From a virus, in IMG/VR virus record IMGVR_UViG_3300028800_002449: a stretch of 64,000 nt of DNA. One strand, given 5' to 3'. The notes below the pieces were generated by a model. That model was not told where the DNA came from. It saw only the letters and a list, made by a program, of their open reading frames with translations, and searched no databases. Both the position numbers and the translations under genes were made by a program. Below are positions 32,223 through 59,990 of the stretch, one piece after another. The number at the start of each line of letters is the position of its first letter. Position 1 is the first letter of the stretch.

Positions 32223-32245
32223 CAACGTGACGAACGTCTTGAAGC

Positions 32246-34684: not shown

Positions 34685-34692
34685 GTCACGAA

Positions 34693-35952: not shown

Positions 35953-35962
35953 TCCGAACCTC

Positions 35963-37761: not shown

Positions 37762-37772
37762 GATCTCTCCTA

Positions 37773-40379: not shown

Positions 40380-40394
40380 GAAGACGACAGTGAC

Positions 40395-40432: not shown

Positions 40433-40441
40433 GCGCGTCGC

Positions 40442-40696
40442 CTATTCCTGCGAGTCGTCGATCGGAGCGACCTTCTTTTCGCCGTGCGACACCAGCTTCA
40501 AAAGCTGGACGATGGGCAGACCTGCGTGCTTCTCACACACGTGGAAGGGCGTCTTTCCGAACATGATCGAGATCAAGATCCCATCGATCCCGATCGCCGG
40601 CTCGCTGCAAACGTGCCGTCCGAAGAGCTTCCGCCCAGCCTCGTCCGGGACGTCGCAGACGGTCTTCAAGATGATCATGTTCTTCGCACGCCCCAT
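40442..40696 (-). CDS. Hypothetical protein, 84 aa
   Basis: ORF. Confidence 0.35.
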   Translation of the reverse strand: MGRAKNMIILKTVCDVPDEAGRKLFGRHVCSEPAIGIDGILISIMFGKTPFHVCEKHAGLPIVQLLKLVSHGEKKVAPIDDSQE

Positions 40697-40708
40697 CCCA
40701 GGGCGCCG

Positions 40709-41749: not shown

Positions 41750-41764
41750 GGAAGACGAGGATGA

Positions 41765-41800
41765 CGAGATTGAGATCCAATCACAAGATTTTGAAAGCCT
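41765..41800 (-). promoter_or_regulatory. Conserved element type 2 (CAAAATCTTGTGATTGGATCTCAATCTCGTCATCCT) ending 8 nt before the rmlB ATG
   Basis: Near-identical to the element at 43405. Contains a TTGTGA -35-like box, a CATCCT -10-like box 17 nt downstream, and a GATTG-N5-CAATC inverted repeat. Confidence 0.5.
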
Positions 41801-42209
41801 AGGGCGCGCCGCCCGTCGCCCAGGCCTCGTCGTCCGGAACGTTCAGAAGCTCCGGCGTCTGGTGCCAGAGGGAAGGATGCGCATGAGTCCCATCGACGGC
41901 GTCGCCGTCGTTGAGCACGTTGATCGACGGTGAGACCATCCAGTTGCTCGTGCCGGGAGCATGCTCGAAGGTGCTCGCCTGAGGCTTCGAGAGGCCCCAG
42001 GTCCGGCCTCCCGCTCCGTTTTCCGTGTAGGCGCCGCCCGGGTTGACGGGGACGCAGAAGACTTCCGGCTGACCATCGCTGTCGCGAAGGACGTTGAACC
42101 AGAGCTGCCACCATCTGGCGCTTCCCGAGCCTGAGGCTCGATGGACGGTGCATTCATTGACCGCCAGATCCTCGATGAGCGCGTGAGAACGATACGTGAG
42201 CGCGCTCAT
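41799..42209 (-). CDS. Hypothetical protein, about 136 aa
   Basis: Internal Met MSALTYRSHAL of ORF 41799..42293(-). Confidence 0.35.
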   Translation of the reverse strand: MSALTYRSHALIEDLAVNECTVHRASGSGSARWWQLWFNVLRDSDGQPEVFCVPVNPGGAYTENGAGGRTWGLSKPQASTFEHAPGTSNWMVSPSINVLNDGDAVDGTHAHPSLWHQTPELLNVPDDEAWATGGAP

Positions 42210-42787
42210 CTGGAGACCGCCCGATCGAACCAGTGCTGGAAGTGCGACGCGTCGTTGGTGTTCGCCCCATGGACGAAGTACGTGTAGAGCCAAGGCTCAC
42301 AAAGCTGCACCACGGACATCCCTCCGAGGTCGACCTCGTTCCTCGGGGTCGGCGGGAACCTTCCGGGTTTCGCCAGGAGCGAAAGTCGCTTGGCGAGCAA
42401 CGTCGGCTCCCACTGGCGAGGCTCGGAGACGACTGCGAGGCCCCGCTCCGGCCAGTGCAGGAGGACCCTCTCCAGCAGGCATGCGTCGGCCTGCGGAACG
42501 GTCGCGAGGACCTCGACCTGCCGCTTGAGACGGTCGGGATGATGGACGTCGTCGTCGTCCCAGAGGCAGACGAGATCTCCCTTCGCGACGCCGAGACCGA
42601 TGCCACGCATCTGGTTGAGGGTCGTGCCGACCTTCGCCTTGTAGAAGGGCCTCTTCAAGGCGGACACGTCGTCGAGCGTGACGATGATGAGTTCGCGGTC
42701 CTTGTAGGACTGGGCGTCGAAGGCGGCGATGGCACGCTCGGCGAGGGCCTGTCTCTTGGCCTGGGTGATCATGAGGCAGGAGATCAT
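42206..42787 (-). CDS. Small GT-A-like glycosyltransferase, 193 aa
   Basis: LIIVTLDD...LWDDDDVHHPDRL (DxD). Confidence 0.5.
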   Translation of the reverse strand: MISCLMITQAKRQALAERAIAAFDAQSYKDRELIIVTLDDVSALKRPFYKAKVGTTLNQMRGIGLGVAKGDLVCLWDDDDVHHPDRLKRQVEVLATVPQADACLLERVLLHWPERGLAVVSEPRQWEPTLLAKRLSLLAKPGRFPPTPRNEVDLGGMSVVQLCEPWLYTYFVHGANTNDASHFQHWFDRAVSR

Positions 42788-42821
42788 AGTGCCCTTGGTG
42801 CCTTTCGGTTCGACGACGCGA

Positions 42822-43424
42822 TCATGTGGTCTTCAGAACGATTTTGCTTGGGTCGATCTTACTTGGCTCGATCTTCTTCGGGAAGGCGATCTTGGTCAAG
42901 GTCGCGACCATGTCTTGGCAGGCTTCCTTGTAGTTCGTGAAGGCATACATCTGATAGTGCTCATTCCGCGAGGTCAGATCAGGCCTCGGCGTATAACCCC
43001 ATGTCGCTGTAAAGTTACATGAGTAGGAGTCGTTGTGCGGAGCGTTTACCTCACGCCACTCCACGTTCAAGTAGTAGTACCAGAACTCGGAAACGGGCGG
43101 CCACTTGTGGGTCAGATCTCCATACGCACGAGCGGCTGACCAGTGTGGAGTGATGATATTCGTCTGTCCGCCCATCTTGAGCACGCGATACAGCTCGTTC
43201 ACGAAGTGAACGCGTTCGACGCTGTCGAAGTGTTCGACGACATGGCTCGCGTTGACCGCTTCGACAGAGTCATTTTCCCAGGGCCACGTCTTCGTCAGGT
43301 CCACGACCTGATCCACGCCGGGAAACGGACGGCTGTCGACGCCGATCCAGTCGGCAGCGATCTTGTTCTTCCCGCATCCGAGGTCGAGCTTCAAGGGAGG
43401 AAGGATGACGTGATTGAAAATCAA
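42822..43424 (-). CDS. Class I SAM-dependent methyltransferase
   Basis: LDLGCGKNK motif I, SVEAVNASHVVEHF, KMGGQ. The listed TTG start lies inside the type 2 element, so the true start may be the downstream TTG (MKLDLGCG). Confidence 0.65.
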   Translation of the reverse strand: MIFNHVILPPLKLDLGCGKNKIAADWIGVDSRPFPGVDQVVDLTKTWPWENDSVEAVNASHVVEHFDSVERVHFVNELYRVLKMGGQTNIITPHWSAARAYGDLTHKWPPVSEFWYYYLNVEWREVNAPHNDSYSCNFTATWGYTPRPDLTSRNEHYQMYAFTNYKEACQDMVATLTKIAFPKKIEPSKIDPSKIVLKTT

Positions 43425-43440
43425 TCACAAGATTTTGGAA
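43405..43440 (-). promoter_or_regulatory. Conserved element type 2 (CAAAATCTTGTGATTGATTTTCAATCACGTCATCCT) at the methyltransferase start
   Basis: Third copy; TGATTGA-N3-TCAATCA inverted repeat. Confidence 0.5.
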
Positions 43441-43574
43441 GAAGGCGACAGGTCACAGGTCTAGAAGCGGTCTGCGGCCCCATCAGAAATTTTATAAACC
43501 CCACCCGAAAGTTCTGCTGTCCGAAGGACGCGTCTGGACTATCGCCTGTCGCCTTCTGCCCTTCCGCGCTCTCT

Positions 43575-44306
43575 TCACCACATCATGTCGGGCGGCCCGA
43601 AGTCGCCCTTGAGATCGTAGTGGCCGACCTTGACCGAGCAGTCGATCGCACAGCGAAAGCCATGCTTGCGGGCGTCCATCCAGAAGTACAGATCTTGGGT
43701 CGCTATCCCGTCGTTCCGCTGAGTCTTGAACCAAGGCTTGCGCAATCGCGCGTCCTTGAACATCGACATCCGCCAGAGGTTGAAGCCCATCCCTGTACCA
43801 CAGCATTCGATGAGACCACCCTGAGGATCAGGCAGCTGCGGCCTGAAGTTCAAGACGGGGTCTTTCGGATCGCCCCAAATCTGAGGTACGCCGCCTGGTC
43901 CCTTCGTGAAGTAGAGGCCGCCGATGCACGACAGCTCAGGGTGGGCCTCCATCTCCTCAAGAAGCTTCAACACGCCGTTCGGTGGAGGCGCGTTGTCGTG
44001 CTCGATCGTGAGGATGTACTCCCACTGCGACAGATTTGGCTCCATCAGGATGTTCTCGACCGCCGCCGAGTATGCCTCGCCCACCTCCATGCCCTGAGCC
44101 AAGATCCTCACGACGCCGTTGTTTGGAGCGAACGCCAGGTTCCAGTGCGACAGCGCCACCTTCGCGGGGATAGTGTCGGCCGCAGGGATGATGACGACGA
44201 TCCGCTGCTGCTTCCAAGCGCCCGTGCGCATCATCCGCGTCGTCGTTCCTTCCAGGTCGCCGTTGTGCGTTCCTGAGAGGTCCTGCATGATCAGTTGAGG
44301 CTTCAC
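43575..44306 (-). CDS. GT-A fold glycosyltransferase, about 240 aa
   Basis: IVVIIPAAD...; DxD-like EHD; alternative ATG start at 44288. Confidence 0.55.
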   Translation of the reverse strand: MKPQLIMQDLSGTHNGDLEGTTTRMMRTGAWKQQRIVVIIPAADTIPAKVALSHWNLAFAPNNGVVRILAQGMEVGEAYSAAVENILMEPNLSQWEYILTIEHDNAPPPNGVLKLLEEMEAHPELSCIGGLYFTKGPGGVPQIWGDPKDPVLNFRPQLPDPQGGLIECCGTGMGFNLWRMSMFKDARLRKPWFKTQRNDGIATQDLYFWMDARKHGFRCAIDCSVKVGHYDLKGDFGPPDMMW

Positions 44307-44348: not shown

Positions 44349-45272
44349 TCACCCACGCACCCACGCGATCGGAACAGCATCGCTAACGAGGATGTATGCG
44401 CCAGCGCTCGTGTTGCTCCCCAGACTATCCGTGACGATGCATGTGATGACTGAGAGGTTGTCAGCCTGACCCAAGACGCCAGTCGTATAAGTGCTGCTGT
44501 CCGTTCCAACGTTGATTCCATTATTCTGCCATTGGTAGCTTACTGTCCCTGAAGAAGCTGTCGTCGTGATGGAGAAGGTCGCCGTCGAGCCGCTGAAGAC
44601 GCTCTGCGTGACTGGCTCTACGCTCACCAACGGACCTGCGGGTCCGACGAGCATCGAGACAACGGCGTAGTCGGCTAATCCGTCATTAAAAGTAGCCTGA
44701 CCCTGTACACCACCCGTGTTCGCAAAGGGCGCGTTCGACACGTATATAGTGGTGTTCGCTCCACCCGTGCTGTTGCTATCAAGAATTGCGAGAGGAGGAA
44801 CGTAAGTGAAGCCAGCAGTATCTTCAGAAGTAAAAACCATGAACTGCATATCGTTCTGAACTGTCGCAGCACCGGCATTGCATCTGAGGACCTTACCGTT
44901 AAACGTTCCATTGTCCATAGATCCTGGCACGCCATCGACGACAGAAACAGTATTCGCTCCTGATACCTCAATTAGGTCGACTGCATTGGTAGAACTGTTG
45001 GTTGTAATCGTAACCGTGAACGTGCCCGCGCTCACATCGACGACTGTCGTCCAAAATGACACCGATCCAGACTCTGAACCGGCAAGTGCTACCTGTCGGG
45101 TGTAAGTCTGAGATCCTTGGTTGTCCGTCACCGATTGCGGCGTGAGGTTGCCATCTGTCGTGATGGCTATGATCAACACATTTCCTACCGTCGGCAACGT
45201 GCTGAAGGTGGCGGTAAAAGGGTTGTTGCCCCCTCCGAGGGTTATTCCATTCTGGACGACTGCAATGGCCAT
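44349..45272 (-). CDS. Fibre-associated protein with C-terminal Ig-like (I-set/Big) domain, about 307 aa
   Basis: Internal Met [10 protein letters not shown] of ORF 44349..45551(-), starting exactly where collagen gene 1 ends. C-terminal TATFSITTTASSGTVSYQWQNNG...DNLSVITCIVTDSLGSNTSAGAYILV has an Ig-like pattern. Confidence 0.5.
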   Translation of the reverse strand: MAIAVVQNGITLGGGNNPFTATFSTLPTVGNVLIIAITTDGNLTPQSVTDNQGSQTYTRQVALAGSESGSVSFWTTVVDVSAGTFTVTITTNSSTNAVDLIEVSGANTVSVVDGVPGSMDNGTFNGKVLRCNAGAATVQNDMQFMVFTSEDTAGFTYVPPLAILDSNSTGGANTTIYVSNAPFANTGGVQGQATFNDGLADYAVVSMLVGPAGPLVSVEPVTQSVFSGSTATFSITTTASSGTVSYQWQNNGINVGTDSSTYTTGVLGQADNLSVITCIVTDSLGSNTSAGAYILVSDAVPIAWVRG

Positions 45273-48200
45273 CAGATAGAGCTGTTCACGAAGTTGAAGT
45301 ATTGCCTCAGAGTCGAGGCATAGCTGACGATGTCTGCAAACCTGACCGTCGACGGCATCGTTGCTGAAGAGACGGTCCAAACTCCGGCTCCAGGATAGAC
45401 CTGTGAGTTCGTGACGTTCGTCGTCTGACCCCAGATGCGCATGCTGTTCGTATTGTTCACTGCGGGCAACGCCTGCGCGAACATGCTGTTGAAGCTCCAA
45501 ACACCTCCAGGGGCCGGCACGGTGCCGGCTGTCGTGCTGCTCGTCGACCATGCCTGCGCGAACCAGTAGTTACCTGGACGAACAGTCGTGTTGAATCCGA
45601 TTGGGACCACGATTGAACCGGAAAGAACGTTCCTCAAGCTCGATTGAAACGCTGTCGCCAAGGTCGAACTCAAAGCTGATGCTGCGGTGTTGAGAGCAGT
45701 CGAGGCACCGAGTGATGTCGTCGTGTAGTTACCACTCGCGTCGATTGAAACGACATAAGACATGGTCGCTCCGACAGACACGCTCAAATTCGTCGAGGCT
45801 GCGCCTGACATCGAAACGGACACGGAGGAGGAGATCGCAACCGAGAAGGAGTTCGACCACACTGACTCAAGGCGCGTGCTGTTGGTTCCGACGCCGAGGC
45901 TGTAAAGGCCGACAGTGTTCCCGAATATGAAGCTGACGCTGGCCGAGCCCGTCGAGTTCGTCTGGAAGTTAGAGCTTGACGCTCTCAAGAGAGACGAGGC
46001 TGCGCTCTGAAAGCTCAAGATCCTGTTGACGCGACCGCCGCTCAGATTCACGGGCAGATTGAAGGGCTCGAAGTACCAGCTTCCGATGCCAGGAGGGTAG
46101 TTCGTCGTCGACGTATAGATCGGATACGGTTCGAAGTTCGTGTACGAAGGTCCGCTGACTGAGATCGTGCTGACATTCGTCGAGATGATGATCCCACCGA
46201 CGCCGACCAGGCTTGACGTGGCTGGCACGCTCGCCGTGACAGTGCTGCCGCTCATTCCGAACGTAATGCCGTTGCTGTTCGAGAAGACGACGGTGCCAGA
46301 CGATTGTGAAGATCCAGCTGCTGAGATCGCCACGCCGCCGCCACCGCCTCCACCAGCTGGTCCGGTTGCTCCTTGAGCACCCGTCGCGCCCTGAGGTCCC
46401 GTCACGCCTGAACCTTGAGGCCCCGTCGGACCCGTCTCGCCGGCTGTTCCCGTCGCTCCTTGCGACCCGGTAGGCCCCGTCGCGCCGGCTGTTCCCGTCG
46501 CTCCTTGCGGTCCCGTCGGCCCCGTCGCGCCGGCTGTTCCCGTCGCTCCTTGCGGCCCCGTCGGACCCGTCGCGCCGGCTGTTCCGGTCGCTCCTTGCGG
46601 TCCCGTCGGACCCGTCGCGCCGACGTTGCCCGTCGCTCCTTGAGCGCCTGACGCGCCCTGAGGTCCCGTCGCGCCTTGGGGACCGGTTGCACCCTGTGGT
46701 CCAGTAGGTCCCGTTGAGCCCTGCGGTCCGATCGAACCCGTCGCGCCTTGCGGTCCCGTCGGGCCCGTCGCGCCTTGCGGTCCCGTCGGGCCCGTCGCGC
46801 CCTGCGTTCCTTGAGCGCCGGTCGGTCCCGTCGAGCCCGCGCTCCCCGTCGGCCCCTGAACGCCGGTCGCGCCCTGAGGCCCCGTCGGGCCCGTCGCACC
46901 TTGGGTTCCCTGAGGGCCTGTCGGTCCCGTCGAGCCCGCGCTTCCCGTCGGGCCCTGAACGCCTGTCGCGCCTTGCGGTCCCGTCGGGCCCGTCGCGCCC
47001 TGCGTTCCCTGAGGGCCGGTCGGTCCCGTAGAGCCCGCGCTTCCCGTCTGGCCTTGAGCGCCGGTCGCGCCCTGCGGCCCCGTCGGCCCGGTCGCACCTT
47101 GGGTTCCCTGAGGGCCTGTCGGTCCCGTGGAGCCCTGCGGTCCGATCGAGCCCGTCGCGCCCTGAGGACCTGTCGCACCTGTCGTGTCGTTGCCGGTCGC
47201 GCCACGAGCGCCAGTGGAGCCTTGAGGACCCGTCGGCCCGGTCGCGCCCTGCGTTCCTTGAGGGCCGGTCGGTCCCGTGGAGCCCGCGCTTCCCGTCGGG
47301 CCCTGAGCGCCGGTCGCGCCCTGCGGTCCCGTCGGGCCGGTCGCGCCCTGCGTTCCCTGCGGTCCCGTCGGACCCGTCGCGCCCTGCGTTCCCTGAGGTC
47401 CGGTCGGTCCGGTCGAACCAGCGCTTCCCGTCGGGCCCTGAGCGCCGGTCGCACCTTGCGGTCCCGTCGGGCCCGTCGCGCCCTGCGTTCCCTGAGGTCC
47501 GGTCGGTCCGGTCGAACCGGCGCTTCCCGTCGGGCCCTGAGCGCCGGTCGCACCTTGCGGTCCCGTCGGGCCCGTCGCGCCCTGTGTTCCCTGAGGTCCG
47601 GTCGGTCCCGTGGAGCCCTGCGGTCCGATTGAGCCCGTCGCGCCCTGAGGGCCCGTTGCGCCTGTCGTGTCGTTGCCGGTCGCGCCACGCGCGCCAGTGG
47701 AGCCTTGCGGCCCCGTCGGCCCGGTCGCGCCCTGAGTTCCTTGAGGGCCGGTCGGTCCCGTCGAGCCTGCGCTCCCCGTCGGGCCCTGAGCGCCTGTCGC
47801 ACCTTGAGGTCCGGTCGGTCCCGTCGAGCCAACGCTTCCCGTCGGGCCCTGAGCGCCAGTCGCACCTTGAGGTCCCGTCGGTCCCGTCGCGCCCTGCGGC
47901 CCCGTCGGCCCAGTCGCGCCCTGCGTTCCTTGAGGGCCGGTTGGTCCCGTGGAGCCCGTGCTTCCCGTCGGGCCCTGAACGCCCGTCGCGCCCTGAGGCC
48001 CCGTCGGCCCGGTCGCGCCTTGGGTTCCCTGAGGGCCGGTCGGTCCCGTGGAGCCCTGCGGTCCGATCGAGCCCGTCGCACCCTGAGGGCCCGTCGCGCC
48101 CGTCGTGTCGTTGCCGGTCGCTCCACGTGCGCCAGTGCTGCCTTGCGGCCCCGTCGGCCCGGTCGCGCCCTGAGTTCCTTGGGGGCCGGTCGGTCCGGTC

Positions 48201-50794
48201 GCACCCGCGTTGCCCGTCGGGCCCTGGGCGCCCGTTGCTCCGACCGCGCCGGTTGCGCCCTGCGGCCCCGTCGACCCGGTCCCGCCCTGCGTTCCCTGAG
48301 GACCGGTCGGCCCAGTCGAGCCAGCGCTTCCCGTCGGACCCTGCGTGCCCGTCGCTCCGGCCGCGCCGGTTGCGCCTTGCGGCCCCGTAGGCCCGGTCCC
48401 CCCCTGCGTTCCCTGAGGGCCTGTCGGCCCGGTCGAGCCCGCGCTGCCCGTGGCTCCAGCAGCGCCGGTCGTGCCTTGCGGCCCCGTCGGCCCGGTCGCA
48501 CCCTGCGTTCCTTGAGGGCCGGTCGGTCCCGTCGCGCCCGCGTTGCCCGTCGGGCCCTGAGTGCCCGTTGCTCCGGCCGCCCCGGTCGTGCCCTGCGGTC
48601 CCGTCGGTCCGGTCGCGCCTTGCGTTCCCTGAGGACCGGTCGGTCCGGTCGAGCCGGCGCTGCCCGTGGCTCCAGCAGCTCCAGTCGTGCCTTGCGGTCC
48701 TGTCGGCCCGGTCGCGCCTTGTGTTCCCTGAGGGCCGGTCGGCCCGGTTGCGCCAGCGCTGCCCGTGACTCCAGCAGCGCCGGTCGTGCCTTGCGGACCC
48801 GTCGATCCGGTCGCGCCTTGTGTTCCCTGAGGGCCGGTCGGTCCCGTTGAACCTGCGCTCCCCGTCGGTCCCTGTGTGCCGGTCGCTCCGGCTACGCCGG
48901 TCGTGCCTTGTGGTCCCGTCGGCCCGGTTGCGCCCTGCGTTCCCTGAGGGCCGGTCGGTCCCGTCGAGCCTGCGCTCCCCGTCGGACCCTGCGTGCCGGT
49001 CGCTCCGGCCGCGCCGGTCGTGCCCTGAGGACCTGTCGGTCCAGTAGAGCCAGGGCTTCCCGTCGGACCCTGCACGCCAGTCGCGCCCTGCGGTCCCGTC
49101 GGTCCCGTGGCACCTTGATTTCCCTGAGGACCCGTCGGACCAGTCGAACCGACTGCGCCCGTTGATCCCTGAGCACCTGTTGAGCCGGCGACGCCAGTCG
49201 CGCCGATCGCACCCGTCGCGCCCTGAGTTCCCTGACTTCCTTGCGGACCTGTCGGTCCCGTCGTACCAGAGCCCTGCGGACCCGTGGGCCCGGTTACGCC
49301 TTGGGGACCCTGTGGTCCAGTCGGACCGGTCGTGCCAGAGCCCTGCGGTCCCGTGGGGCCCGTTACACCTTGAGGTCCCTGCGGTCCCGTCGGTCCTGTC
49401 GTACCAGAGCCCTGTGGACCCGTGGGGCCGGTTACGCCTTGAGGTCCTTGTTGTCCCTGAGGTCCCGTTGGCCCCGTCGTGCCAGAGCCCTGCGGTCCCG
49501 TCGGTCCCGTGGCTCCTTGAGGACCTTGCGCGCCTGTCGGGCCAGTTGCACCAGCTCCTTGCGGGCCCGTCGGTCCAGTTGCGCCCTGAGGGCCCTGCGA
49601 GCCCGTAGGACCAGTGCTTCCTGCGCCCGTTGCACCCTGAGGCCCCGTCGGACCCGTCGCACCCTGAGCGCCAGTAGGGCCCGTGGGGCCCGTCATCCCT
49701 ATGCCGGTAGCACCTTGTGGTCCGGTGGCACCCGTTCCGCCTTGAGGACCAGTCGGTCCGGTCGCGCCCTGAGCGCCCGGCGAGCCGGCGCCCCCCTGCG
49801 GTCCGGTCGGCCCCGTGCTTCCCTGTGGACCGGTCGCGCCCTGTGCGCCCGTCGGTCCCGTCGAACCTTGAGGACCTGGCGAGCCGTTGCCGCCCTGAGG
49901 ACCGGTCGGCCCCGTGGGACCGGTCGCGCCCTGAGGACCCGCACTTCCCTGAGGACCGGTTGGACCCGTGCCGCCAATGCTGCCCGTCGGACCTTGCGCG
50001 CCTGTCGGTCCCGTTGAACCCTGAGGGCCGGGAGATCCTGCTCCGCCTTGGGGACCGGTCGGACCGGTCGCGCCAGTCGGACCCTCGGGGCCGGTCGCGC
50101 CTTGCGGACCGACAGAACCTGTCGAACCTTGCGAGCCCGTTGCGCCGCGTGAGCCCGTTGGACCCGTAGTGCCCTGCGCGCCCGGAGATCCTGCGTTGCC
50201 CTGCGGCCCCGTCGGGCCGGTCGCGCCCTGCGGTCCAGTCGGGCCCGTAGAGCCCTGCGGCCCCGGAGATCCTTGTCCCTGAGGACCCGTCGCACCTTGC
50301 GGGCCCGTCGGGCCAGTCGGTCCAGGACCCGTGCCTGCCGGACCCGTCGCCCCCTGCGGTCCCGTCGGCCCCGTCGCGCCCGGAGGTCCCTGAGGACCCG
50401 TCGCGCCCGTGCCGCTGCCACCACCTCCGCAGTTGCAATTTTCTTCGGCGGCGACGCTGACGACGACGTCTTCGAGGATGATGCCGACGGGCAGCAGGCG
50501 CAGGTAACGAACTGTCGCGTTCTGGACGAAGATCGGAGAGAGGTTGCGCACGTTGTGCGCGACGTTCTCGGAGAGCCTGTCGATGTTGAACTGGCAGAGA
50601 GTGCTCCACGACGCGTTGTCGAGGCTGCCTTCCACGCAGATGTCGCCGCCCCTGAAGAGACCCTTCGAGAGGACGAAGGTCAGATCTCTATCGAGCCCCG
50701 ATGGCGGGACGAGCGTGACCAAGTCGATGCTGGGCTGAGCGCCAACAGCACGAGCTGGGAGGATCGGAAATGTGAGGAAATTGTTAGCGCCCAT
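45272..50794 (-). CDS. Giant collagen-like fibre protein 1 (1840 aa)
   Basis: About 125-aa N-terminal domain, then roughly 1265 residues of Gly-X-Y ([10 protein letters not shown]...), then about 440-aa Ser/Thr/Asn-rich C-terminal domain. Confidence 0.9.
46600..50440 (-). repeat. Gly-X-Y collagen triplet repeat region of fibre protein 1 (coding tandem repeats)
   Basis: Higher-order 13-triplet units ([33 protein letters not shown]) recur more than 20 times. Three copies of a longer block carry GNDTTG interruptions. Confidence 0.85.
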
Positions 50795-50943
50795 CAGCCT
50801 TGGGGGCTCGGGAGCGCGCTAACTACTGAGAGGTTTCGATAGTCTCACACTGGCCGTCGACATTCCACGGCGGACGCACGAATCCCTTTGACGGTCAAGC
50901 CGGCTTCTTAGGAGAAGGCCCCTAAGCCTCGCTCGCGCGAGGA

Positions 50944-51339
50944 TCAAGTCATCTTGATGACGATCGCGCTCGGGCCGCCCTCGGGCATCACGTACGAGCC
51001 GTTCTTGACCTCTTCGAGACGGTCTTCGATCTCCGAGAGGATCAGAGAGTCCGAGCCCTCCGACGTCGTCTTGTTGAGCTTGTCGATCATCCAGTCGAGC
51101 GTCTCGGTGTTGATGAGGATCGGCACCGGAACGTCCTTGATGTCGCCCGGCTTGATGCCTTTGGTCGTCAGGCGCGTCATGATCTCGTCGAGCTTCATGC
51201 GCTTGAACGCCACACGCATCGCTCTCCTGGCCGTCTTGCCATCGGGCTTGTACGTCGTGGAGAAGAAGAGTGCGAGAGCCAGGCGCTCACGCTCGGTGAA
51301 CGCGACGTTGATGGCCATGGGGTCGTCAGACATTTCCAA
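50944..51339 (-). CDS. Hypothetical protein, 131 aa
   Basis: ORF between the two collagen genes. Confidence 0.4.
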   Translation of the reverse strand: MEMSDDPMAINVAFTERERLALALFFSTTYKPDGKTARRAMRVAFKRMKLDEIMTRLTTKGIKPGDIKDVPVPILINTETLDWMIDKLNKTTSEGSDSLILSEIEDRLEEVKNGSYVMPEGGPSAIVIKMT

Positions 51340-51387
51340 ATACCTCCTGGAGCAGGAAGCTACAGGAACGCCGTGGCAATCGAAAGA

Positions 51388-52053
51388 TTACGAGGATCCC
51401 ACCAGCTTCATGACGTCGAAGTCTTCGCCGACGAAGGTCGAAGATCTCTGAAGGCCCACGCTCCCCACGACACTCCTACCTCCGCCTATGTGATCGACAA
51501 GATTCGGGAAGTGGTACGCGACCTTCGACTTCCGCATCGCCTTGCCGATGAGCGTGTCGGCGCCGTGTTTGGTCGGCCATCTGCGAATCTGATCAGACGC
51601 CAGAAGCGTCACGACCGTCGATGCCGACATCGTCGTCGCCTGGTTGTACGCGAAGCTGTGAGCGTTCTCGACTTCCAGATGAGGAGTCGTGACCTGCGCG
51701 TAGGGTCTGCGCCGACAGAACCAGGACACGAGAGCGAGGTCATCGACAAGCTCGAAGGTCGAGACGTAGTCGAGCATGTTCTTCGCGACGACGACGTCGT
51801 CCTCGAACAACGTCAGAGCCGTGAAGCCGGGACATGCAGCAGCGGCTCTCAGCGCCGCGAAGAAGGTCTGAGCCTGGCCATGGTCGCCAGGATCTTCGAC
51901 GACGAGCTTCGGACCCGGCCAGCGATCCCAACCACCATGCCGGAGCGAGCCCATCGTTCTTCGACGGAGGTCTTCTCGACCAGGGCAGCTCATCAAAGCG
52001 ACCACGTGGCCAGACCCTGGGCTACCGTGCTCGATCGGACGAGCTTCAAGCAT
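51388..52053 (-). CDS. Hypothetical protein, 221 aa
   Basis: ORF immediately upstream of collagen gene 1 region; no recognisable motifs. Confidence 0.4.
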   Translation of the reverse strand: MLEARPIEHGSPGSGHVVALMSCPGREDLRRRTMGSLRHGGWDRWPGPKLVVEDPGDHGQAQTFFAALRAAAACPGFTALTLFEDDVVVAKNMLDYVSTFELVDDLALVSWFCRRRPYAQVTTPHLEVENAHSFAYNQATTMSASTVVTLLASDQIRRWPTKHGADTLIGKAMRKSKVAYHFPNLVDHIGGGRSVVGSVGLQRSSTFVGEDFDVMKLVGSS

Positions 52054-52061
52054 CTAGTCCG

Positions 52062-54580
52062 CTACGGGTTCGCGATCGTCGTGACGGTTCCCGAAGGACC
52101 CTTCACCTTCAGACCGCCTGCTTCACCCCAAAGGAAATAACCATTGAGTGGGTTCCCCGTCGAGGGAGTGCTGCTCGCGATGTTGATGAACATGACGCCA
52201 GAACCGCCCTGGAAGGGTGTATTCGTTCCTGCGAACAGGACGAAGTTGCCGTGTCCGATTGATGACTGACCGAACGCGCCAGCCTGGTTTTGCGCATCAG
52301 CCTGGAACGAGACGCCTGCACCTGCCTTCGAAGCCAACAGAGTCGCGAGACCACCCGTGCCCGTGCCGCCGATGTCCGTGCTCGTGAGCGTCAACCCCCC
52401 CGAAGATCCATCGGCAGCGGTCACGTTATCGACGAAGATCGTGCTCCAGACAGTGGAAGTACCCCCGAGGTTGTACGTCTTGTTCGCGGTCGGCGTGATC
52501 GTACCGGTGACCGTGATCGATGCCGAGCCGAGCGTGATCGCCGTGTTGAAAGAGGCGTTGTTCGAGAGCTGGAGAGAGCTTCCACCGATGCCTTGGACGT
52601 TCTCGACGTAGACGGTTCCCCAACCCGACGAAGACGAGCCGAGGTTGTATGCGAAGCTTGAGGTCGGCACGACGCTACCGATCACGGTGATCGATGCGCT
52701 GCCGAGCGTGATCTCGGTGTTGCCCGAGGCATTGTTGGCCAGCTGGAGTGAGCTGCCGCCGATGCCCTGGATGTTCTCAGTGTAGATGATGCTCCACCCT
52801 GACGACGCTGAGCCCAGTGTGTATGTGAAGTTCGAGGCCGGAACTATGTTACCCGTCTGCGCGACGTTGCCCTGGATCTGAATGTTCGACCCGAGGATGA
52901 TCGCCGTCGCCGCACCACCGTTGTTGAACAGAGACAGCGTGCCACTCGGGATGCCCTCGATCGACGTAGTCATGAGGACTGTGTCTAAACGCGTGGTACC
53001 AGACTGCACCCACAACGCGTAGCCGTTCGTAATCGACAGGCTTCCACCCGTGATTGGTGCTCCCTTGATCGTGAACGTCGCAGCGTTCGTGATCGCCACG
53101 ACCGAGACGTCCGTGTACGTCGGCTGCTCGATCGTGAAGAGGTTGTATCCCGTCGCGGTCGTGATGTTCGTCGTGCCCGTGACGGTCTGCGTGCCACCCT
53201 CGAAGTGGAACGCGTTGAGGGTCGCGCCGGCCGCGCTCGCGATGGTCGTGTTCACGGTGAAGTCGTCGGCGCTCGCGACGGTGGCGGTCGTGGTGCTCGT
53301 GAGCTTGGTGAGCGTGAGCGTCAAGGCGCCAGAGATCTGCATTCCACCGTCGAGACGGGTCAGTCCCTGCTGAACCCAGAGCGCATAGGAACCCATGATG
53401 GTCAGGTTGCCGGTGTTGATCGGAGCGCCATGGATGGCCACCGTCGCTGCGGTCGTGATCGTCATCAGCGACGTGTCCGTGTACGTGGGTCGCTCGACCG
53501 TGAAGTAGTTGACGCCGGTCGGAGTCGTGATGCCTGTCGTTCCGGTGAACGTGATCGTCGACGAATCGATGTGGAACGCGTCGAGGACCGTCCCAGAGGC
53601 GCTCGCGATCGATCCTTGCGCGATGAAGTCGAACGCATCCTGCGGCGTCGTCGTGATGATCGTGACGCTCGACGAGTTCTGGATGCTGACGCCACCGTTG
53701 GTTCCGTTGAGAGAGAAGACGGTCGTGCCGCCCGTGCCGTCGATCAACGTCGTGCTGTTCAACGTCAGGAACTGTCCGGTCGCCACGCCGATGTTGAGAG
53801 ACGTCAGCGCGCCCTGCTGCCAGCCGATCATGTTGTTGGCGTAGACGTTGTCGTTGACGCCGATGCTGGCAGTGCCACCGCTGTTGCGGTTGTTCAGGTA
53901 GAGCGCGAGGCCGGTGCCGAAGCCGCCCGCGGCGCCTTGAAGCACGCCGTTGATCTCCATCGTCGTCGCGACGATCATCGTCAGCGCGCTCGCCGCCGTG
54001 TAAGTCGGCGAGCGAACGGTGATCATGCTGATCGAACCGATGTTGGACGAGCCCGTGATCGTGACCGTGACCGGGTCCCACAGGTACGAGTCGAGGATGC
54101 CCGTCGCGCTCGCGACGTTCGGTGGCGTGATGCCCCACTCGAACACGGTGCCGTTCGCAGCCGTCAGCACCGAGTTCGTCGACGAGAAGGACGTGTACCC
54201 GATGTTCTTCCACTGGAACGTGCCGGCGGTGCCGTTCGGCGTCCAGATGCTGTAGATCGTGTTGTTGAGGTTCAGCTCCATGGCGTTGTTGTCCGCCGTG
54301 CCGAAGAAGAACGTGCCGCCCGTCTTGTAGAGCGTCTGAGCGCCAGCGCCCGTCAGAGCAATCGCCGAGCTGCCCGATCCGATCTGACCGATCGTCAGCG
54401 GAGCGCCAGCGCCCACGGCGTCAGCTCCGATCAGCAGCCTGTGGTTGACGGGGTCCCATCGGAAGAGGTTGTCCTGGCCGACCTTCGTCGCCGTCGCCGC
54501 GAAGAGGACATCGGGAGCGATGAGCTGCGCACCGCTCGGGCCCGTGGCTGCGAGACCGCCCTGCGGGCCGGTCGGTCCCG
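52062..54580 (-). repeat. Internal tandem peptide repeats in the C-terminal domain of fibre protein 2
   Basis: Two repeats of about 100 aa ([28 protein letters not shown]... and [28 protein letters not shown]...). Three repeats of about 55 aa ([34 protein letters not shown]...). Confidence 0.7.
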
Positions 54581-56411
54581 TCGGACCGAGGACGCCCTGA
54601 GGTCCGGTCGGACCCGTCGCTCCCTGCGTTCCTTGCGGGCCGATGCTGCCCGTCGCGCCCTGGGCGCCCGTCGCGCCTTGAGCGCCAGTCGCGCCACGAG
54701 GACCGGTCGGGCCCGTCGCACCCTGGGTGCCGGCATTTCCCTGAGGTCCCGTCGGCCCCGTCGAGCCCTGCACGCCCTGCGGGCCGATCGTGCCCGTCGG
54801 TCCGACAGATCCCGTCGCGCCCTGAACGCCCGCGCCGCCCTGCGAGCCCGTCGAGCCCTGCACGCCTTGCGTTCCCTGAGGTCCCGTCGGACCGGTCGCG
54901 CCCTGCGTGCCCTGAGGTCCGATCGAGCCCGTCGCGCCCTGCTGGCCCGTCGCACCCCTCGCGCCCGTCGGGCCCGTGCTTCCCTGCGTGCCCTGAGATC
55001 CCTGCGGGCCCGTCGGTCCGGTCGCGCCGACGCCCTGAGGCCCCGTCGGTCCAGTCGTGCCCTGCGTGCCCGCGGGGCCTTGAGGACCGGTCGGACCGGT
55101 CGCGCCCGAACCTTGCGGGCCGGTCGGACCCGTCGTGCCCTGAACGCCAGCACCACCTTGCGGGCCGGTCGGGCCGGTCGTGCCCGAGCCTTGCGGGCCC
55201 GTCGGTCCCGTCGAGCCCTGGATGCCCGTCGCTCCTTGCGGACCTGCTGGACCGGTCGCGCCAGCTCCCTGCGGACCGGTCGGCCCCGTCGATCCTTGGA
55301 TGCCCGTCGCGCCGATCGTGCCGGTCGCGCCCTGCTGGCCGGTCGCGCCCGTGCCGCCCCTCGGACCCGTGGGACCCGTTCCACCCTGAGGACCCTGCGG
55401 TCCCGTCGGGCCGGTCGCGCCTGCGCCTTGCGGGCCTGTCGGTCCTGTCGATCCTTGTATGCCGGTCGCGCCTTGAGGTCCGGCCGCGCCCGTCGCGCCA
55501 GCTCCCTGCGGACCCGTCGGTCCCGTCGAGCCCTGGATGCCAGTGGCTCCTTGCGGACCTGCTGGACCGGTCGCGCCAGCTCCCTGCGGGCCGGTCGGCC
55601 CCGTCGATCCTTGGATGCCCGTCGCGCCGATCGTGCCGGTCGCGCCCTGCTGACCGGTCGCGCCCGTGCCACCCCTCGGGCCCGTCGGACCCGTTCCGCC
55701 CTGAGGACCCTGCGGACCAGTCGGGCCGGTCGCGCCCGAGCCCTGAGGACCTGTCGAGCCCGTCGCTCCGGCTGCGCCCGTCGGACCTTGAGAGCCGGTC
55801 GGGCCCGTCGCGCCGAAGCCGGCAGGGCCCGTCGGGCCGGTCGCGCCCGGCGCGCCAGTCGGCCCTTGGCTGCCCACACCCGTCGCGCCCTGAGGTCCCG
55901 TGGCGCCAGCCGTGCCAGGCGCACCCGTCGGACCCACGGGGCCCGTCGAGCCCGGAGCGCCCGTCACACCTTGAGGACCGCCTGCGGGACCCGTCGCGCC
56001 CTGAGGACCCGTGGCGCCCGTGCCACCGCCGCCGGTCTGGCAGTCGCAGTTCTGCTCGCCCGCGACGGTGATGAAGACGTCGCCCGTGATCCTGCCGATG
56101 ACGTTCAGCCGGAGGAAGCGGACGATCGTGCTCTCGACGAGAACAGGATCGAGGACGAGGGTGAACTGAGGAGCTTGGCCGCCAGACTCACCCGGATCTC
56201 GGACGCTGAACTGGCAGAGCGTGCTCCACGCGATGCCGTCGACGCTGCCCTCGACCGAGATGATGCCGAAGAACCCACCGTTCCCGAAAAGGAACGTGAG
56301 ATCTGCACCCAATCCCGTTGACGGGACGAGCGACGTCAGATCTATCGAGGATTGAGTCCCAGACGCGCCTCGCGGCACGACGGGAAACGCGATGAAATTG
56401 TTGATGCCCAT
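52062..56411 (-). CDS. Giant collagen-like fibre protein 2 (1449 aa)
   Basis: N-terminal domain paralogous to fibre protein 1 ([13 protein letters not shown]... versus [13 protein letters not shown]...). About 480-residue Gly-X-Y region, then an 840-aa C-terminal domain. Confidence 0.9.
54580..56030 (-). repeat. Gly-X-Y collagen triplet repeat region of fibre protein 2
   Basis: [23 protein letters not shown]...; the opposite-strand ORFs here are Arg/Ala-rich artefacts. Confidence 0.85.
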
Positions 56412-56498: not shown

Positions 56499-57059
56499 TC
56501 ACTTCTCGGCGGCGCCCTCTTTCGTCCCCCAGGCCCACACGGTCACCGGAAAATTATGCTCGTTCACGAGCGAGTTCTCCGGCTGATAGATGGCCCACCT
56601 CGTGAAGTTCGCGATCACGCAGTCTCGGTTTCCCCAGCTGTCGGCGCGGACATCTTTGAAACCGGCCCTCTCCAGCATCAAGATCAAACCGGAGCTGGTC
56701 CATCGCCAGTGATCATGCGGATCGTAGTGGTTCCTGATCAGAAAGGGCGTCGTCACGAACGCTCGCCCCTTCTGAGGCAGAGCCCGCAATACGTTCGCGA
56801 GAGCATCGGCAGGGTTCGAGACGTGCTCCAGGACCTGATCGAGGACGATCAGGTTCGCGCCCTCCACGCGAGACTGCCAACCGTCCTTGCACACGTCTAT
56901 GTTCTCCAAGCTCCTGTAGCTGCGCCAAGGCAGGAGATCAGAAAACTCCGAGCCAGAGATCTCCAAGACGTCCAGCTCGGCGGCCTCCTCACGGAACAGA
57001 TCGGCCGCCGCACGGTACATGACGATCCGACACCAATGGTCACGCACCCTGTGGGACAA
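56499..57059 (-). CDS. Class I SAM-dependent methyltransferase, paralog A
   Basis: LDVLEISGSE and LIVLDQVLEHV...LPQKGRAFV motifs; 65% identical to the 57892..58431 product. Confidence 0.6.
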   Translation of the reverse strand: MSHRVRDHWCRIVMYRAAADLFREEAAELDVLEISGSEFSDLLPWRSYRSLENIDVCKDGWQSRVEGANLIVLDQVLEHVSNPADALANVLRALPQKGRAFVTTPFLIRNHYDPHDHWRWTSSGLILMLERAGFKDVRADSWGNRDCVIANFTRWAIYQPENSLVNEHNFPVTVWAWGTKEGAAEK

Positions 57060-57891: not shown

Positions 57892-58431
57892 TCAACCAAC
57901 CTTCGTCCCCCATGCCCAGACCGTCACGGGAAAATCTGGCTCGTTGACGAGAGAGTGATCGGCCGGCCGATAGGTCTCCCACAGGGCGAAGTTCGCTATC
58001 GCGCAGGCCCTGTTCCCCCAGCTGTCTGAATGAACGTCCTTGAAGGCCGCCCTCTTCAACATCAAGGCGAGACCAGAGCTGGTCCATCTCCAATGGTCCT
58101 GAGGAGAGGGGTGGTTCTTGACCAGGAACGGCGTAGAGACGAAGACGCGTCCTCCAGCCGGCAACGCCTTGACGATGTTGACGAGGGCTTCATGAGGGCT
58201 ATCGACGTGCTCCAGGACCTGATCGATGACGATCAAGTTCGCGTCCTTCGCACGAAACTGCCAACCATCCTTGCAGAGGTCGACACCGGACACCGAGCGG
58301 AAGCTCTTCCAGGGAAGGAGGTCCGAAAATGCGCCTCCGGAGATCTCGACGACGTCGAGCTTGCCCGCATCACCCTCGAAGTGCTTCTTCGCCGCCTCGT
58401 ACATGGCGATGCGAGTCCAGTGGCTGCGCAC
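57892..58431 (-). CDS. Class I SAM-dependent methyltransferase, paralog B
   Basis: GTG start (VRSHWTRIAMY) chosen by alignment with paralog A. The listed longer ORF would run into the tRNA-Gln gene. Confidence 0.6.
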   Translation of the reverse strand: MRSHWTRIAMYEAAKKHFEGDAGKLDVVEISGGAFSDLLPWKSFRSVSGVDLCKDGWQFRAKDANLIVIDQVLEHVDSPHEALVNIVKALPAGGRVFVSTPFLVKNHPSPQDHWRWTSSGLALMLKRAAFKDVHSDSWGNRACAIANFALWETYRPADHSLVNEPDFPVTVWAWGTKVG

Positions 58432-58521
58432 GCCGTAGGGCACGATCAGAACTCCTGGTGAGTCAGGCTGGTCAGAGCAGGAAGGACGGTGACGAGTGCG
58501 ATCGAGTTGGACGGCAGAGTT

Positions 58522-58598
58522 TGGTACGCAAAGTTGGATTTGAACCAACGATCTTCCGCTTCAGAGGCGAACGTCCTACCAGACTGGACGATTTGCAT
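58522..58598 (-). tRNA. tRNA-Gln (anticodon CUG), 77 nt with encoded CCA
   Basis: Manual fold: acceptor ATGCAAA/TTTGCGT, D-arm GTCC-AGTCTGGTA-GGAC, anticodon arm TTCGC-CTCTGAA-GCGGA, T-arm GTTGG-TTCAAAT-CCAAC, discriminator A, CCA. Confidence 0.8.
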
Positions 58599-58940: not shown

Positions 58941-59990
58941 TCAGCTCGGGTGGTTGGTCAGGTACGCCTCGACGACGTTCACCAACAGGCGATCGATCGC
59001 GACCGGATCTGAGCCCTCCGGCAGCTTCGACTCAGCAGCGACCGCGTTCAGACTCGTCTCCGTGTCTTGAGCCCACTGCATCAGCTCGTCGTAGCTCCAT
59101 CGTCCATCACGCACCGACAGAAGCTCCTCCGCGTCGGGACGTCTCACCAGCACCTGCCCGTCACGCAGGATCTCGATCGCCATCCGCATCAGACGGACGA
59201 GGTGCATCGCGTGCTTCGTGTCGTACCCGAAACGCCGCTCCAGCTCGGCGCGCTTCTCGTTCCGCTCGTCCTTCCACTTGCAGAAGGCCACCCAGTTGCG
59301 CATGGCGCTCTTGTACTTCCGCTCGGCGACGACGATCGGGATCAGATTCGGCGCGAGGTCGACCTCCGACGCCACGAGCGTCACCAGCTCCTCGTCACGC
59401 TCTGCAACCTTGTCCTTCGTCCAACCCTCACCACCGAGCGTGTCTTCGATCTTGCGGATGCGCGACTCGATCAAACCGAACTGCTCCTTCGGCAACGTCG
59501 GCGCCTGAGGAAGCCCATAGTCCTCACGCTCTGGATGCTTCTTCGGCGGATCGAGCAGCCACTTCTTGTGACTCTTGATGCGCTTCAGCTGCGCCATCGC
59601 GTAGCCGCTGAAGGAATCCTTCGCGACCTTGGTCACGAACATCTCACGCTGCTCGACGAAGATCTTCCAGTAGGAATTCACGAAGACCCAGTCAGCCTCG
59701 TTCGTGAAAAGGATCTCGATGATGTTCGGGTTGCACGACGACGCCATCGAGGCGAACTTCCTCAGGTCGTAGATCGTGATGTCGATCGGCTGCTTCGTCT
59801 CGACGCTCTCGAACTTGTAGAGGCTGCCGAGGAAGTAGCGCTTCGGCGGGATCGCGATGCCCTTGTAGTCCTCGTCCGACGTCGCGATGTTCGTCCCGTA
59901 CGCATGGCTGCCACTGCGACACAGGAAGATCGTCCTGCGCTTGAGCCAATCGAGGTTGCCCATGTACCAAGTGAAGTCCGCGACGTTCAT
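58941..59990 (-). CDS. Pol-beta-superfamily nucleotidyltransferase (RlaP/PF10127-like), 349 aa
   Basis: N-terminal IFLCRSGSHAYGTNIATSDEDYKGIAIPP matches the GS-x9-DxD nucleotidyltransferase signature. Confidence 0.55.
   Translation of the reverse strand: MNVADFTWYMGNLDWLKRRTIFLCRSGSHAYGTNIATSDEDYKGIAIPPKRYFLGSLYKFESVETKQPIDITIYDLRKFASMASSCNPNIIEILFTNEADWVFVNSYWKIFVEQREMFVTKVAKDSFSGYAMAQLKRIKSHKKWLLDPPKKHPEREDYGLPQAPTLPKEQFGLIESRIRKIEDTLGGEGWTKDKVAERDEELVTLVASEVDLAPNLIPIVVAERKYKSAMRNWVAFCKWKDERNEKRAELERRFGYDTKHAMHLVRLMRMAIEILRDGQVLVRRPDAEELLSVRDGRWSYDELMQWAQDTETSLNAVAAESKLPEGSDPVAIDRLLVNVVEAYLTNHPS

Follow-up and report, generated by a model that had tools for sequence, protein, structure and literature searches.

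Layout of the fibre genes and length of their shafts

The window analysed here is a stretch of 64,000 nucleotides (nt) from the virus record IMGVR_UViG_3300028800_002449 of IMG/VR, and the subject of this report is a pair of genes in it that encode giant collagen-like proteins, referred to below as fibre 1 and fibre 2. Between 44.3 and 56.4 kb, the minus strand of the window carries five genes in the same direction, namely fibre 2, an open reading frame (ORF) of 188 amino acids (aa), an ORF of 129 aa, fibre 1, and a 307-aa protein with immunoglobulin-like (Ig-like) domains. These two fibre ORFs probably encode paralogous trimeric virion fibres (adhesins) of an uncultivated huge phage, a reading for which the analysis shows gene structure, paralogy, composition, the fold model and family of the shared N-terminal domain, the sharing of distal modules, and the gene neighbourhood. 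The features of the fibre block are as follows.

45272..50794 (-): fibre 1 gene; ATG start and uninterrupted frame; 1840 aa in the window, 1646 aa in the ENA contig
50797..50810 (-): leader motif CGAGCCCCCAAGGC, shortly before the fibre 1 start codon
50423..50794 (-): jelly-roll domain at the N-terminus of fibre 1, aa 1-124, final motif NCNC
46328..50407 (-): fibre 1 collagen-like shaft, aa 130-1489, from the triplet count and Pfam Collagen
47003..47584 (-): 582-nt (194-codon) segment, aa 1071-1264, in the window and missing from the ENA assembly
45275..46327 (-): fibre 1 distal part, aa 1490-1840, a short repeat unit and then a tip domain of ~290 aa
52062..56411 (-): fibre 2 gene; 1449 aa, intact from ATG to stop; exact protein recorded on ENA contig k141_2938905
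56415..56428 (-): leader motif CGAGCCCCCATGGC, shortly before the fibre 2 start codon
56034..56411 (-): jelly-roll domain at the N-terminus of fibre 2, aa 1-126, final motif NCDC
54552..56027 (-): fibre 2 collagen-like shaft, aa 129-620, from the triplet count and Pfam Collagen
52065..54551 (-): fibre 2 distal part, aa 621-1449, with repeated modules visible by eye
51388..51954 (-): 188-aa ORF between the fibre genes, weakly glucosyltransferase-like (phrog_854, E 8e-5); gene call from the ENA record
50944..51333 (-): 129-aa ORF between the fibre genes, no family matches
44349..45272 (-): 307-aa Ig-like-domain protein, start codon overlapping the stop of fibre 1 (TGATG)

An initial annotation, drawn from the sequence alone, had placed two collagen-like fibre ORFs here, and both are indeed present on the minus strand with open frames. 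Their matches to Pfam Collagen (PF01391) are far beyond chance (E 2.4e-167 for fibre 1 and 3.3e-49 for fibre 2). Other long ORFs that run over the repeat on both strands were dismissed as by-products of a GC-rich triplet repeat, because the Gly-X-Y frame alone joins N- and C-terminal domains that have homologues elsewhere. Both genes share a 14-nt leader, CGAGCCCCCAWGGC, which stands a few bases before the ATG and has no other exact copy in the window, and a related motif, GAGCCCCCAAG, precedes the first fibre gene of a syntenic locus, L006, that is described below. A GGAGG-type Shine-Dalgarno sequence is absent at both fibre gene starts, and a promoter and terminator scan of the fibre region gave background level only. 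Between the two genes, the 129-aa ORF is without a match in Pfam and PHROG scans, and a PDB search with the 188-aa ORF was empty or insignificant.

Counted directly, with Gly-X-Y triplets taken in runs of at least four, the shaft of fibre 1 holds 445 triplets in a span of 1360 residues, and that of fibre 2 holds 157 triplets in 492 residues. The tracts had first been described as continuous, which does not hold: fibre 1 has 13 interruptions of 1-2 residues, leaving a longest clean run of 128 triplets, and fibre 2 has 11 short interruptions. Many of these are spaced ~23-26 or ~52 residues apart in the pattern GPQ-G(S/A)-G(T/A)T-GPT. The lengths originally estimated, 1265 and 480 residues, come within ~7% of the measured spans, and the commonest triplets are the four that had been named, GPT, GPQ, GAT and GST. 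In fibre 1, position Y is 51% Thr and 32% Gln while position X is 42% Pro, and Thr stands at position Y 228 times in fibre 1 and 69 times in fibre 2. With Gly at every third position in long runs and Pro enriched at X, these tracts have the makeup of a collagen repeat, and the Thr-rich flavour that had been likened to the exosporium protein BclA is correct as a description of composition. At 0.286 nm per residue, the full spans convert to ~389 nm for fibre 1 and ~141 nm for fibre 2, if a triple helix forms.

The value for fibre 1 varies with the assembly. ENA contig ERZ27245399:k141_2938905 (260,244 bp) represents the same genome, being identical to the window over 13,206 nt plus 3,792 nt flanking fibre 1, and fibre 2 is identical in both assemblies. 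The window version of fibre 1 is 582 nt longer than that of the contig, and in a global alignment the two differ by a single clean in-frame indel of that size and by four substitutions close to the junction. The 1840-aa version has no record in the public collection. The exact length of fibre 1 is uncertain or polymorphic, and for its shaft a range of 1166-1360 residues (333-389 nm) is the safest figure; the ~360 nm given in the initial annotation likewise varies with the assembly used.

It could be argued that fibre 1 owes its extreme length to an error of assembly and that the true tract is much shorter, like those of its relatives, and we regard this as very unlikely. Two assemblies of one genome do disagree by 582 nt inside the repeat, the 1840-aa version is missing from the public collection, and other members of the N-domain family have at most ~250 Gly-X-Y residues; the k141_ style of the contig name, which we take to be that of MEGAHIT short-read output, was also counted on this side. 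The repeat units, however, are diverged. A tandem-repeat finder reports degenerate higher-order DNA repeats in fibre 1, with periods of 99-483 nt and 58-90% match, and the longest exact repeat is 65 nt within the fibre 1 gene and 62 nt within fibre 2. Because exact repeats of this size are well below k = 141, every part of the tract, the extra 582 nt included, has unique read-derived sequence, and the long tract can therefore not simply be identical units multiplied by the assembler. Assembly expansion had been named at the outset as the finding that would undo the prediction; expansion of identical units is not borne out, and the 582-nt discrepancy between assemblies is what stands of that concern. 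The frame also stays open for 5.5 kb and links homologous N- and C-terminal domains, the shorter version still has ~1166 collagen residues, and fibre 2 is the same in both assemblies. That a shaft of this length is unusual for any prokaryotic fibre, as first stated, is partly right, as collagen regions of up to 1158 residues have been reported in Bcl proteins (PMC8968730).

The shared N-terminal domain and the distal modules

The N-terminal domains of the two fibres are homologous, with 50% identity over 139 aligned positions (E 5e-33), which bears out the paralogy that had been proposed from ~45% identity by eye over ~120 aa. When modelled from a 52-sequence alignment, the domain is confidently predicted to be a jelly roll; a first model from two sequences was poor (pLDDT, the predicted local distance difference test, 56) and was replaced. 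The fold matches named are the prophage proteins YomS and XepA, the turret protein of Sulfolobus turreted icosahedral virus (STIV), the trimeric cement protein of phage KHP40, and the small head protein of phage VP1. The fold scores, those for jelly-roll cement and decoration proteins of phage capsids (KHP40 gp16) included, do not separate tail from capsid.

Neither window domain has a match in Pfam, PHROGs, isolated phages or IMG/VR. Searching isolated phages by tblastn with both classes of the domain returned nothing, and a word-indexed protein search returned no match for the fibre 1 domain and three proteins only for the 52-sequence family profile. An exhaustive profile search, with a family profile built from both window domains and covering 1.84 billion cluster representatives, recovered 185 representatives at E <= 1e-3 and 72 at E <= 1e-10. 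The source records of ten members are all metagenomic and lack a functional name, and the family appears from these searches to be unannotated and, in the data searched, restricted to metagenomes. One member, P0001, reaches 28.6 bits against PF00754 (F5_F8_type_C), for which the gathering score is 28.2, and the family profile has weak matches in the PDB to CBM32-type domains (E 0.04-0.7). Pfam scans of nine family members were almost uninformative.

The architecture of the family was counted in 144 members with a full-length domain. It lies at the very N-terminus in 46 of the 144 and after one extra domain of ~100 aa in 98, and the parts that follow it vary widely in sequence and length, from 120 to more than 1900 aa, and consist of collagen, non-collagen repeats or other domains. 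Collagen is found in 23 of the 144, nearly always directly after the domain and over at most ~250 residues. Of the 46 N-terminal-class members, 40 have a Cys-x-Cys motif at the end of the domain, among them both window fibres with NCNC and NCDC. Receptor-binding and decoration proteins of phages typically combine a constant N-terminal module with distal parts that vary, and the domain can therefore be read as the docking end of the fibre, which would also fix the register of the helix. The attachment role first assigned to it fits the constant domain and variable downstream parts seen across at least 185 cluster representatives. Two N-terminal-class members, P0001 and P0002, have three tandem copies of the domain in one chain and may be single-chain pseudo-trimers. 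These suggest that the docking unit is a trimer, as the collagen helix also needs.

In the three-copy members (L007 10001..11578; GCA_037024775.1, JBAIGA010000013.1, 162 kb), a small C-terminal domain follows the last copy. The host contig of L007 was deposited in a genome assembly and looks phage-like (HNH, dCMP deaminase, thymidylate kinase and many small ORFs). On another contig, L011, the gene next downstream (14300..14791) of family member P0110 (1422 aa) has a spore-coat-protein-U (SCPU) domain.

A syntenic arrangement of N-domain fibres is present at L006, an 18-kb contig of the Joint Genome Institute (JGI), where ThiF, RlaP and a methyltransferase are followed by at least three tandem N-domain collagen fibre ORFs. 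The ThiF-RlaP pair lies at 5170..7452, and the order upstream of the fibres is the same as in the window. Two of the L006 fibres, of 964 and 522 aa, have nearly identical N-domains, and the third N-domain ORF is interrupted by the contig end. The collagen tracts at this locus are only ~150 residues, and the long shafts of the window are therefore a lineage-specific expansion.

The distal parts of the two fibres are unrelated to each other (BLASTP E > 1), as had been thought, and both are without a sequence match in Pfam, PHROG or the PDB. A C1q/TNF-like fold, which had been raised for the distal domains, found no match, the fibre 1 part having no Pfam family at E <= 1 and the C-terminal part of fibre 2 giving only noise, and the idea was dropped as lacking sequence support. 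In the 829-aa distal part of fibre 2, three modules of ~110 aa that end in '...ITN.YALWV..G.TRLD' can be seen by eye, together with three repeats of ~60 aa ('Y.LG....W...Y') and a C-terminal tip motif; BLASTP finds no internal repeats in this part despite those visible by eye. The modules are shared, in other combinations, with 16 metagenomic fibre-like proteins, one of which (P0163) also ends in K1-lyase_C, the C-terminal domain of K1 capsule lyase. Pfam scans of nine relatives of this part were almost uninformative. By tblastn, fibre 2 modules are present in two huge-phage genomes, and the 60-aa repeats are found in the 'structural protein' of P-SSM4 and the 'fiber' of cyanophage P-RSM3 (33% identity, E 6e-6), the matching region being aa 565-708 of fibre 2 as numbered within its C-terminal part. 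The P-RSM3 'fiber' is a protein of 2657 aa that is encoded next to homologues of gp13-gp16.

The 351-aa distal part of fibre 1 begins with a short repeat unit and ends in a tip of ~290 aa, and it is without a match in isolated phages. Relatives of the tip occur in 47 IMG/VR viral loci on unannotated contigs, typically in proteins of 500-1900 aa that carry many copies of the fibre 1 repeat unit and then the tip, with neither collagen nor the N-domain. Since the tip is found elsewhere on non-collagen repeat shafts, fibre 1 is a chimera of the N-domain, a giant collagen, and a tip that in other phages is borne by another type of shaft. Judged by sequence similarity, both distal parts are mosaics of modules that are found in other phage fibre proteins. 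At L014, ~4 kb separate a fibre 1-type tip from a downstream ORF that weakly resembles a portal protein (25% identity, E 1e-6).

Relatives of the tip also include two adjacent giant proteins at L013 (IMG/VR UViG 3300009545_000018, 447,763 bp), at 937..5619 (1560 aa) and 5619..9026 (1135 aa). They consist of dozens of units of ~30 aa and 'NQT.GLYALGNTTQNSSTTLDARTLSFNG' units of ~40 aa, with a fibre 1-type tip at the end, and for their repeat family Pfam, the PDB and isolated phages gave no match.

The glycosylation island and the genome around it

Directly downstream of the fibre block lies an island of ~17 kb (27764..44306, minus strand) that was annotated from Pfam, NCBIfam and PHROG matches, and two further methyltransferase-like genes adjoin fibre 2 on its upstream side.

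27764..29179 (-): fusion of GT2 glycosyltransferase and methyltransferase
29134..30072 (-): NAD-binding enzyme
30063..31625 (-): sugar C-methyltransferase (Methyltransf_13/14)
32246..34942 (-): double GT4 glycosyltransferase, 898 aa
34693..35952 (-): methyltransferase-like
35963..36700 (-): GT2
36697..37761 (-): GT2
37773..40379 (-): GT2-TPR-GT4 protein, 868 aa
40709..41749 (-): dTDP-glucose 4,6-dehydratase-like (RmlB-like); TIGR01181 E 2.6e-99, 332 bits, below the curated cutoff of 365
42206..42787 (-): GT2
42822..43424 (-): methyltransferase
43575..44306 (-): weak glycosyltransferase-like ORF
56499..57020 and 57892..58443 (-): two methyltransferase-like genes immediately upstream of fibre 2 (Pfam Methyltransf_23)

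The fibres are flanked in this way by at least eight glycosyltransferase-domain proteins, several methyltransferases and the RmlB-like dehydratase; a PDB search with the 43575..44306 ORF was empty or insignificant. In these neighbours, the Thr-rich, BclA-like composition of the triplets finds a support by context that had not been expected. At locus L010, a fibre gene with an N-domain of ~46% identity is followed directly downstream by homologues, at ~38% identity, of the double GT4 and the 868-aa glycosyltransferase, and the linkage of fibre and glycosyltransferase genes therefore predates the divergence of these phages.

It is plausible that the threonines of the shafts are O-glycosylated by phage enzymes, as in BclA, and we put the chance of this just short of even. 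Bann and Bachinger reportedly found, around 2000, that (Gly-Pro-Thr)10 peptides need glycosylation of Thr for a stable triple helix. A Gly-Pro-Thr helix stabilised by glycosylation would give a structural reason for the linkage of fibres and glycosyltransferases.

Alternatively, the fibres may be real and the island separate, with enzymes that modify phage DNA, another virion protein or host polysaccharide while the shafts stay unglycosylated, and to this we give somewhat less than an even chance. Known targets of phage glycosyltransferases include DNA and host serotype antigens (PMC12619734), and most prokaryotic collagen-like proteins are not known as glycosylated (PMC8968730). The homologous glycosyltransferases of L010, moreover, accompany a family member that is free of collagen. 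Set against this, the RmlB-like dehydratase, the sugar C-methyltransferase and the multi-domain GT2/GT4 proteins point to assembly of an oligo- or polysaccharide rather than to single-sugar modification of DNA. The cluster encloses the fibre genes, which are flanked to left and right by methyltransferases and separated by the weak glycosyltransferase-like ORF, and the linkage of fibres and glycosyltransferases has been kept at ~38% protein identity.

On sequence grounds, the genome is probably that of a huge phage of at least 260 kb, an assignment that is well supported; neither this setting nor the island nor the mosaic origin of the distal domains had been recognised in the initial annotation. 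Outside the repeats the window has 58-64% GC, nearly all of its genes are on one strand, and most small ORFs are without a Pfam or PHROG match. The recognisable genes are RtcB, RlaP, ThiF, ParB, thymidylate-synthase-like, PTH2, DnaJ, RNA-polymerase alpha-CTD-like, RF-1 and one tRNA. Features outside the fibre block and the island are as follows.

L004 14719..15363: RF-1-like gene, just outside the window start
983..1366 (-): PTH2
4771..5241 (-): DnaJ
7619..8227 (-): RNA-polymerase alpha-CTD-like
8417..9679 (-): RtcB
16413..19421 (-): major vault protein (MVP)-like protein, 1002 aa; Pfam MVP_shoulder 3e-19, Vault_3 6e-11
21123..22163 (-): ABC-transporter-permease-like protein (BPD_transp_1, 2e-8)
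22429..24231 (-): 600-aa protein with a C-terminal OmpA-like domain (1e-17)
58522..58598 (-): tRNA-Gln(CUG), 2 kb upstream of fibre 2
58941..59990 (-): RlaP
60396..60977 (-): ThiF-like, upstream of the fibre block

The MVP-like protein is related to proteins of uncultured huge phages (37% identity across ~80% of its length), in the genomes LR756500.1 (462 kb) and LR756501.1/LR756503.1 (735 kb). An IMG/VR scan returned no relatives of it, and the top-ranked literature did not pair 'major vault protein' with huge or jumbo phages. The OmpA-like domain may point to a host whose envelope is anchored to peptidoglycan. A giant virus of eukaryotes, an idea that arose from 61% GC and the collagen genes, was rejected on account of RF-1, the OmpA-like domain, ParB and the huge-phage homologues. 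A megablast search with 19 kb of the window gave no match among isolated phages. The fibres are rich in Gln (7.6%, vs. 3.1% in 46 other genes), and a link between them and tRNA-Gln(CUG) was considered and dropped, with CAG use at 68% in the fibres vs. 83% in other genes.

Possible location on the virion, comparison with known systems, and significance

The protein encoded by the gene that overlaps fibre 1 was confirmed to have the Ig-like domains that had been recognised in it, of a kind typical for virion decoration proteins. It matches chain S of PDB 9C2D (E 1.8e-18), pb10 (the decoration protein of T5) and a further phage protein with Ig-like domains, as well as phrog_3995 'tail protein' (4.7e-9). 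The 9C2D structure is the capsid of Shigella phage Sf14, whose gp20 is a Hoc-like decoration protein with three Ig-like domains (PMC11821841), and from its length and the description in that paper we infer that chain S is gp20. By sequence, the 307-aa protein is probably of a virion-surface type; the match falls within the Ig-like domains and does not indicate location. As for the fibres, module homologies point more to the tail; pointing more to the capsid are the fold matches, the neighbour with Ig-like domains, and the presence of several paralogues with one anchor. The window ORFs that were scanned and the flanking loci L002 and L004 gave no match to a tail, sheath or baseplate family.

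A capsid anchorage, in which N-domain trimers would occupy symmetric sites and bear a sugar-coated collagen nap like the BclA exosporium or the Mimivirus fibrils, is in our judgement rather unlikely. It would agree with a neighbour whose Ig-like domains are nearest to the Sf14 capsid chain, presumed to be gp20, and to T5 pb10, and two or three paralogues with the same anchor would be more in keeping with a site of many copies than with the six-fold sites of a baseplate. The fibres also lie within a glycosylation cluster, like the Mimivirus fibril protein R135 (PMC9614988), and jumbo phage PTm1 bears head fibres (PMC13282480). The modules of fibre 2, however, match a cyanophage fibre encoded beside gp13-gp16 homologues and a protein that carries K1-lyase_C. 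Ig-like domains are likewise found on tails, and phrog_3995 is labelled 'tail protein'.

That the two proteins are not virion parts, and are BclA-like surface-layer proteins of a mobile element on an infected cell or a spore-like surface, seems highly improbable. The BclA-like triplet composition, the adjacent deoxy-sugar genes, and the fact that virion hallmark genes were not seen nearby would be consistent with it, but neither end has a BclA-type C-terminal domain or any other Pfam match. The conserved MG(A/I)NNF start has no obvious signal peptide by eye, and the distal modules are common to proteins of viral contigs and cyanophage fibres.

Several observations weigh against the interpretation of these proteins as glycosylated virion fibres. 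The length of fibre 1 is unequal between assemblies, and the PHROG 'tail fiber' matches of the full-length fibres were set aside as evidence, since they cover the collagen repeat only and vanish without it. The L010 family member that stands next to conserved glycosyltransferases has no collagen, and collagen threonines therefore need not be the target of these enzymes. Finally, no capsid, terminase, portal, sheath, baseplate or tail gene was seen in the ~81 kb of contig examined, and the phage identity and virion location are therefore argued from indirect evidence.

In layout, the fibres recall viral spikes of other lineages. The PRD1 spike P5 has an N-terminal vertex anchor, a short collagen-like stretch and a distal knob, and adenovirus 40/41 has two fibre paralogues of different lengths with the same capsid-docking end. 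The likeness is one of layout only, as these belong to other virus lineages and have tiny collagen tracts or none. Comparable too are the collagen-like tail-fibre and minor-tail proteins of phages (PHROG 1806, PHROG 30509 'collagen like minor tail', P-SSM2 orf028), which have the same Pro/Ser/Thr-rich Gly-X-Y shaft between non-collagen ends, are candidate trimers, and exchange distal domains as modules, as here. In contrast to these, the shafts described here are far longer (492 and 1166-1360 residues), the anchor is from an unnamed family that is absent from the isolated-phage genomes and IMG/VR contigs searched, the similarity to PHROGs is limited to the repeat, and the genes lie inside a glycosylation island.

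BclA and the other Bcl proteins of Bacillus share the plan of an N-terminal anchor, a Gly-X-Thr-rich collagen and a C-terminal domain, and their collagen regions span similar lengths. Membership of the BclA family, which the initial annotation's comparison might imply, is not upheld: both ends are unrelated in sequence, and they matched neither a C1q/TNF-like domain nor the C-terminal domain of BclA. BclA is glycosylated (PMC8968730), and its side chain is described as containing rhamnose residues and the methylated sugar anthrose; here, a dTDP-glucose 4,6-dehydratase homologue and methyltransferases adjoin the fibres. Unlike in BclA, the N-terminus here is a 120-aa jelly roll of a separate, metagenome-only family in place of an exosporium-targeting region, the carrier is a phage and not a spore, and glycosylation is a prediction. 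In Mimivirus, the fibril layer depends on a virus cluster of sugar-nucleotide enzymes, glycosyltransferases, a methyltransferase and a fibril protein (PMC9614988). The likeness lies in a virus-encoded glycosylation cluster of 9-12 genes with a fibril protein, and in fibres proposed to act in adhesion, whereas the host of Mimivirus is eukaryotic, its main fibril proteins are non-collagen, and homology is limited to generic glycosyltransferase and short-chain-dehydrogenase folds. Hairy jumbo phages offer a further parallel in their many long thin capsid or tail appendages, such as the head fibres of Tenacibaculum phage PTm1 and the tail hairs of Erwinia phage Y3, which are reviewed without mention of collagen or glycosylation (PMC13282480).

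In the mechanism that we propose for paralogous trimeric fibres, the jelly-roll N-domain of ~120 aa would trimerise, dock on a repeated site of the virion and set the register of the triple helix. The Pro/Thr/Gln-rich, interrupted collagen shaft would then extend ~141 nm in fibre 2 and 333-389 nm in fibre 1, if triple-helical, and the unrelated distal parts would bind two different ligands at two distances from the particle. O-glycosylation of shaft Thr by phage enzymes may stabilise and hydrate a Gly-Pro-Thr helix that is free of hydroxyproline. Since the N-domain is common to the two paralogues, they would be rivals for one type of docking site. The steps that we infer are assembly into trimers, placement on tail or capsid, receptor binding, and glycosylation. 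A more elaborate version, which we consider unlikely, would be a phage-made glycocalyx of collagen hairs hundreds of nanometres long, held by the jelly-roll domain at repeated sites of the capsid, with Thr O-glycosylated through a pathway of ~12 genes (deoxy and methylated sugars, multi-domain glycosyltransferases) and glycosylation needed for helix stability; such a coat would parallel, in a virus of bacteria, the fibrils of Mimivirus and the nap formed by BclA.

Neither collagen-like fibres in phages nor very long collagens in bacteria are new in themselves, and what is notable here is the length, the unannotated anchor family and the glycosylation context. If the interpretation is true, shafts of ~140 and 330-390 nm would be unusually long for a phage and would give a larger capture radius, which would matter for host finding by huge phages that diffuse slowly. 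The N-domain family could likewise mark receptor-binding or decoration proteins in metagenomic huge-phage genomes. To our knowledge, autonomous glycosylation of viral proteins has so far been documented mainly for capsid and tail-tube proteins of mycobacteriophages and for giant viruses of eukaryotes, and a Thr-rich collagen inside a phage glycan-synthesis cluster would be a testable case of it. The sequence is, in addition, a natural example of a very long collagen design without hydroxyproline.

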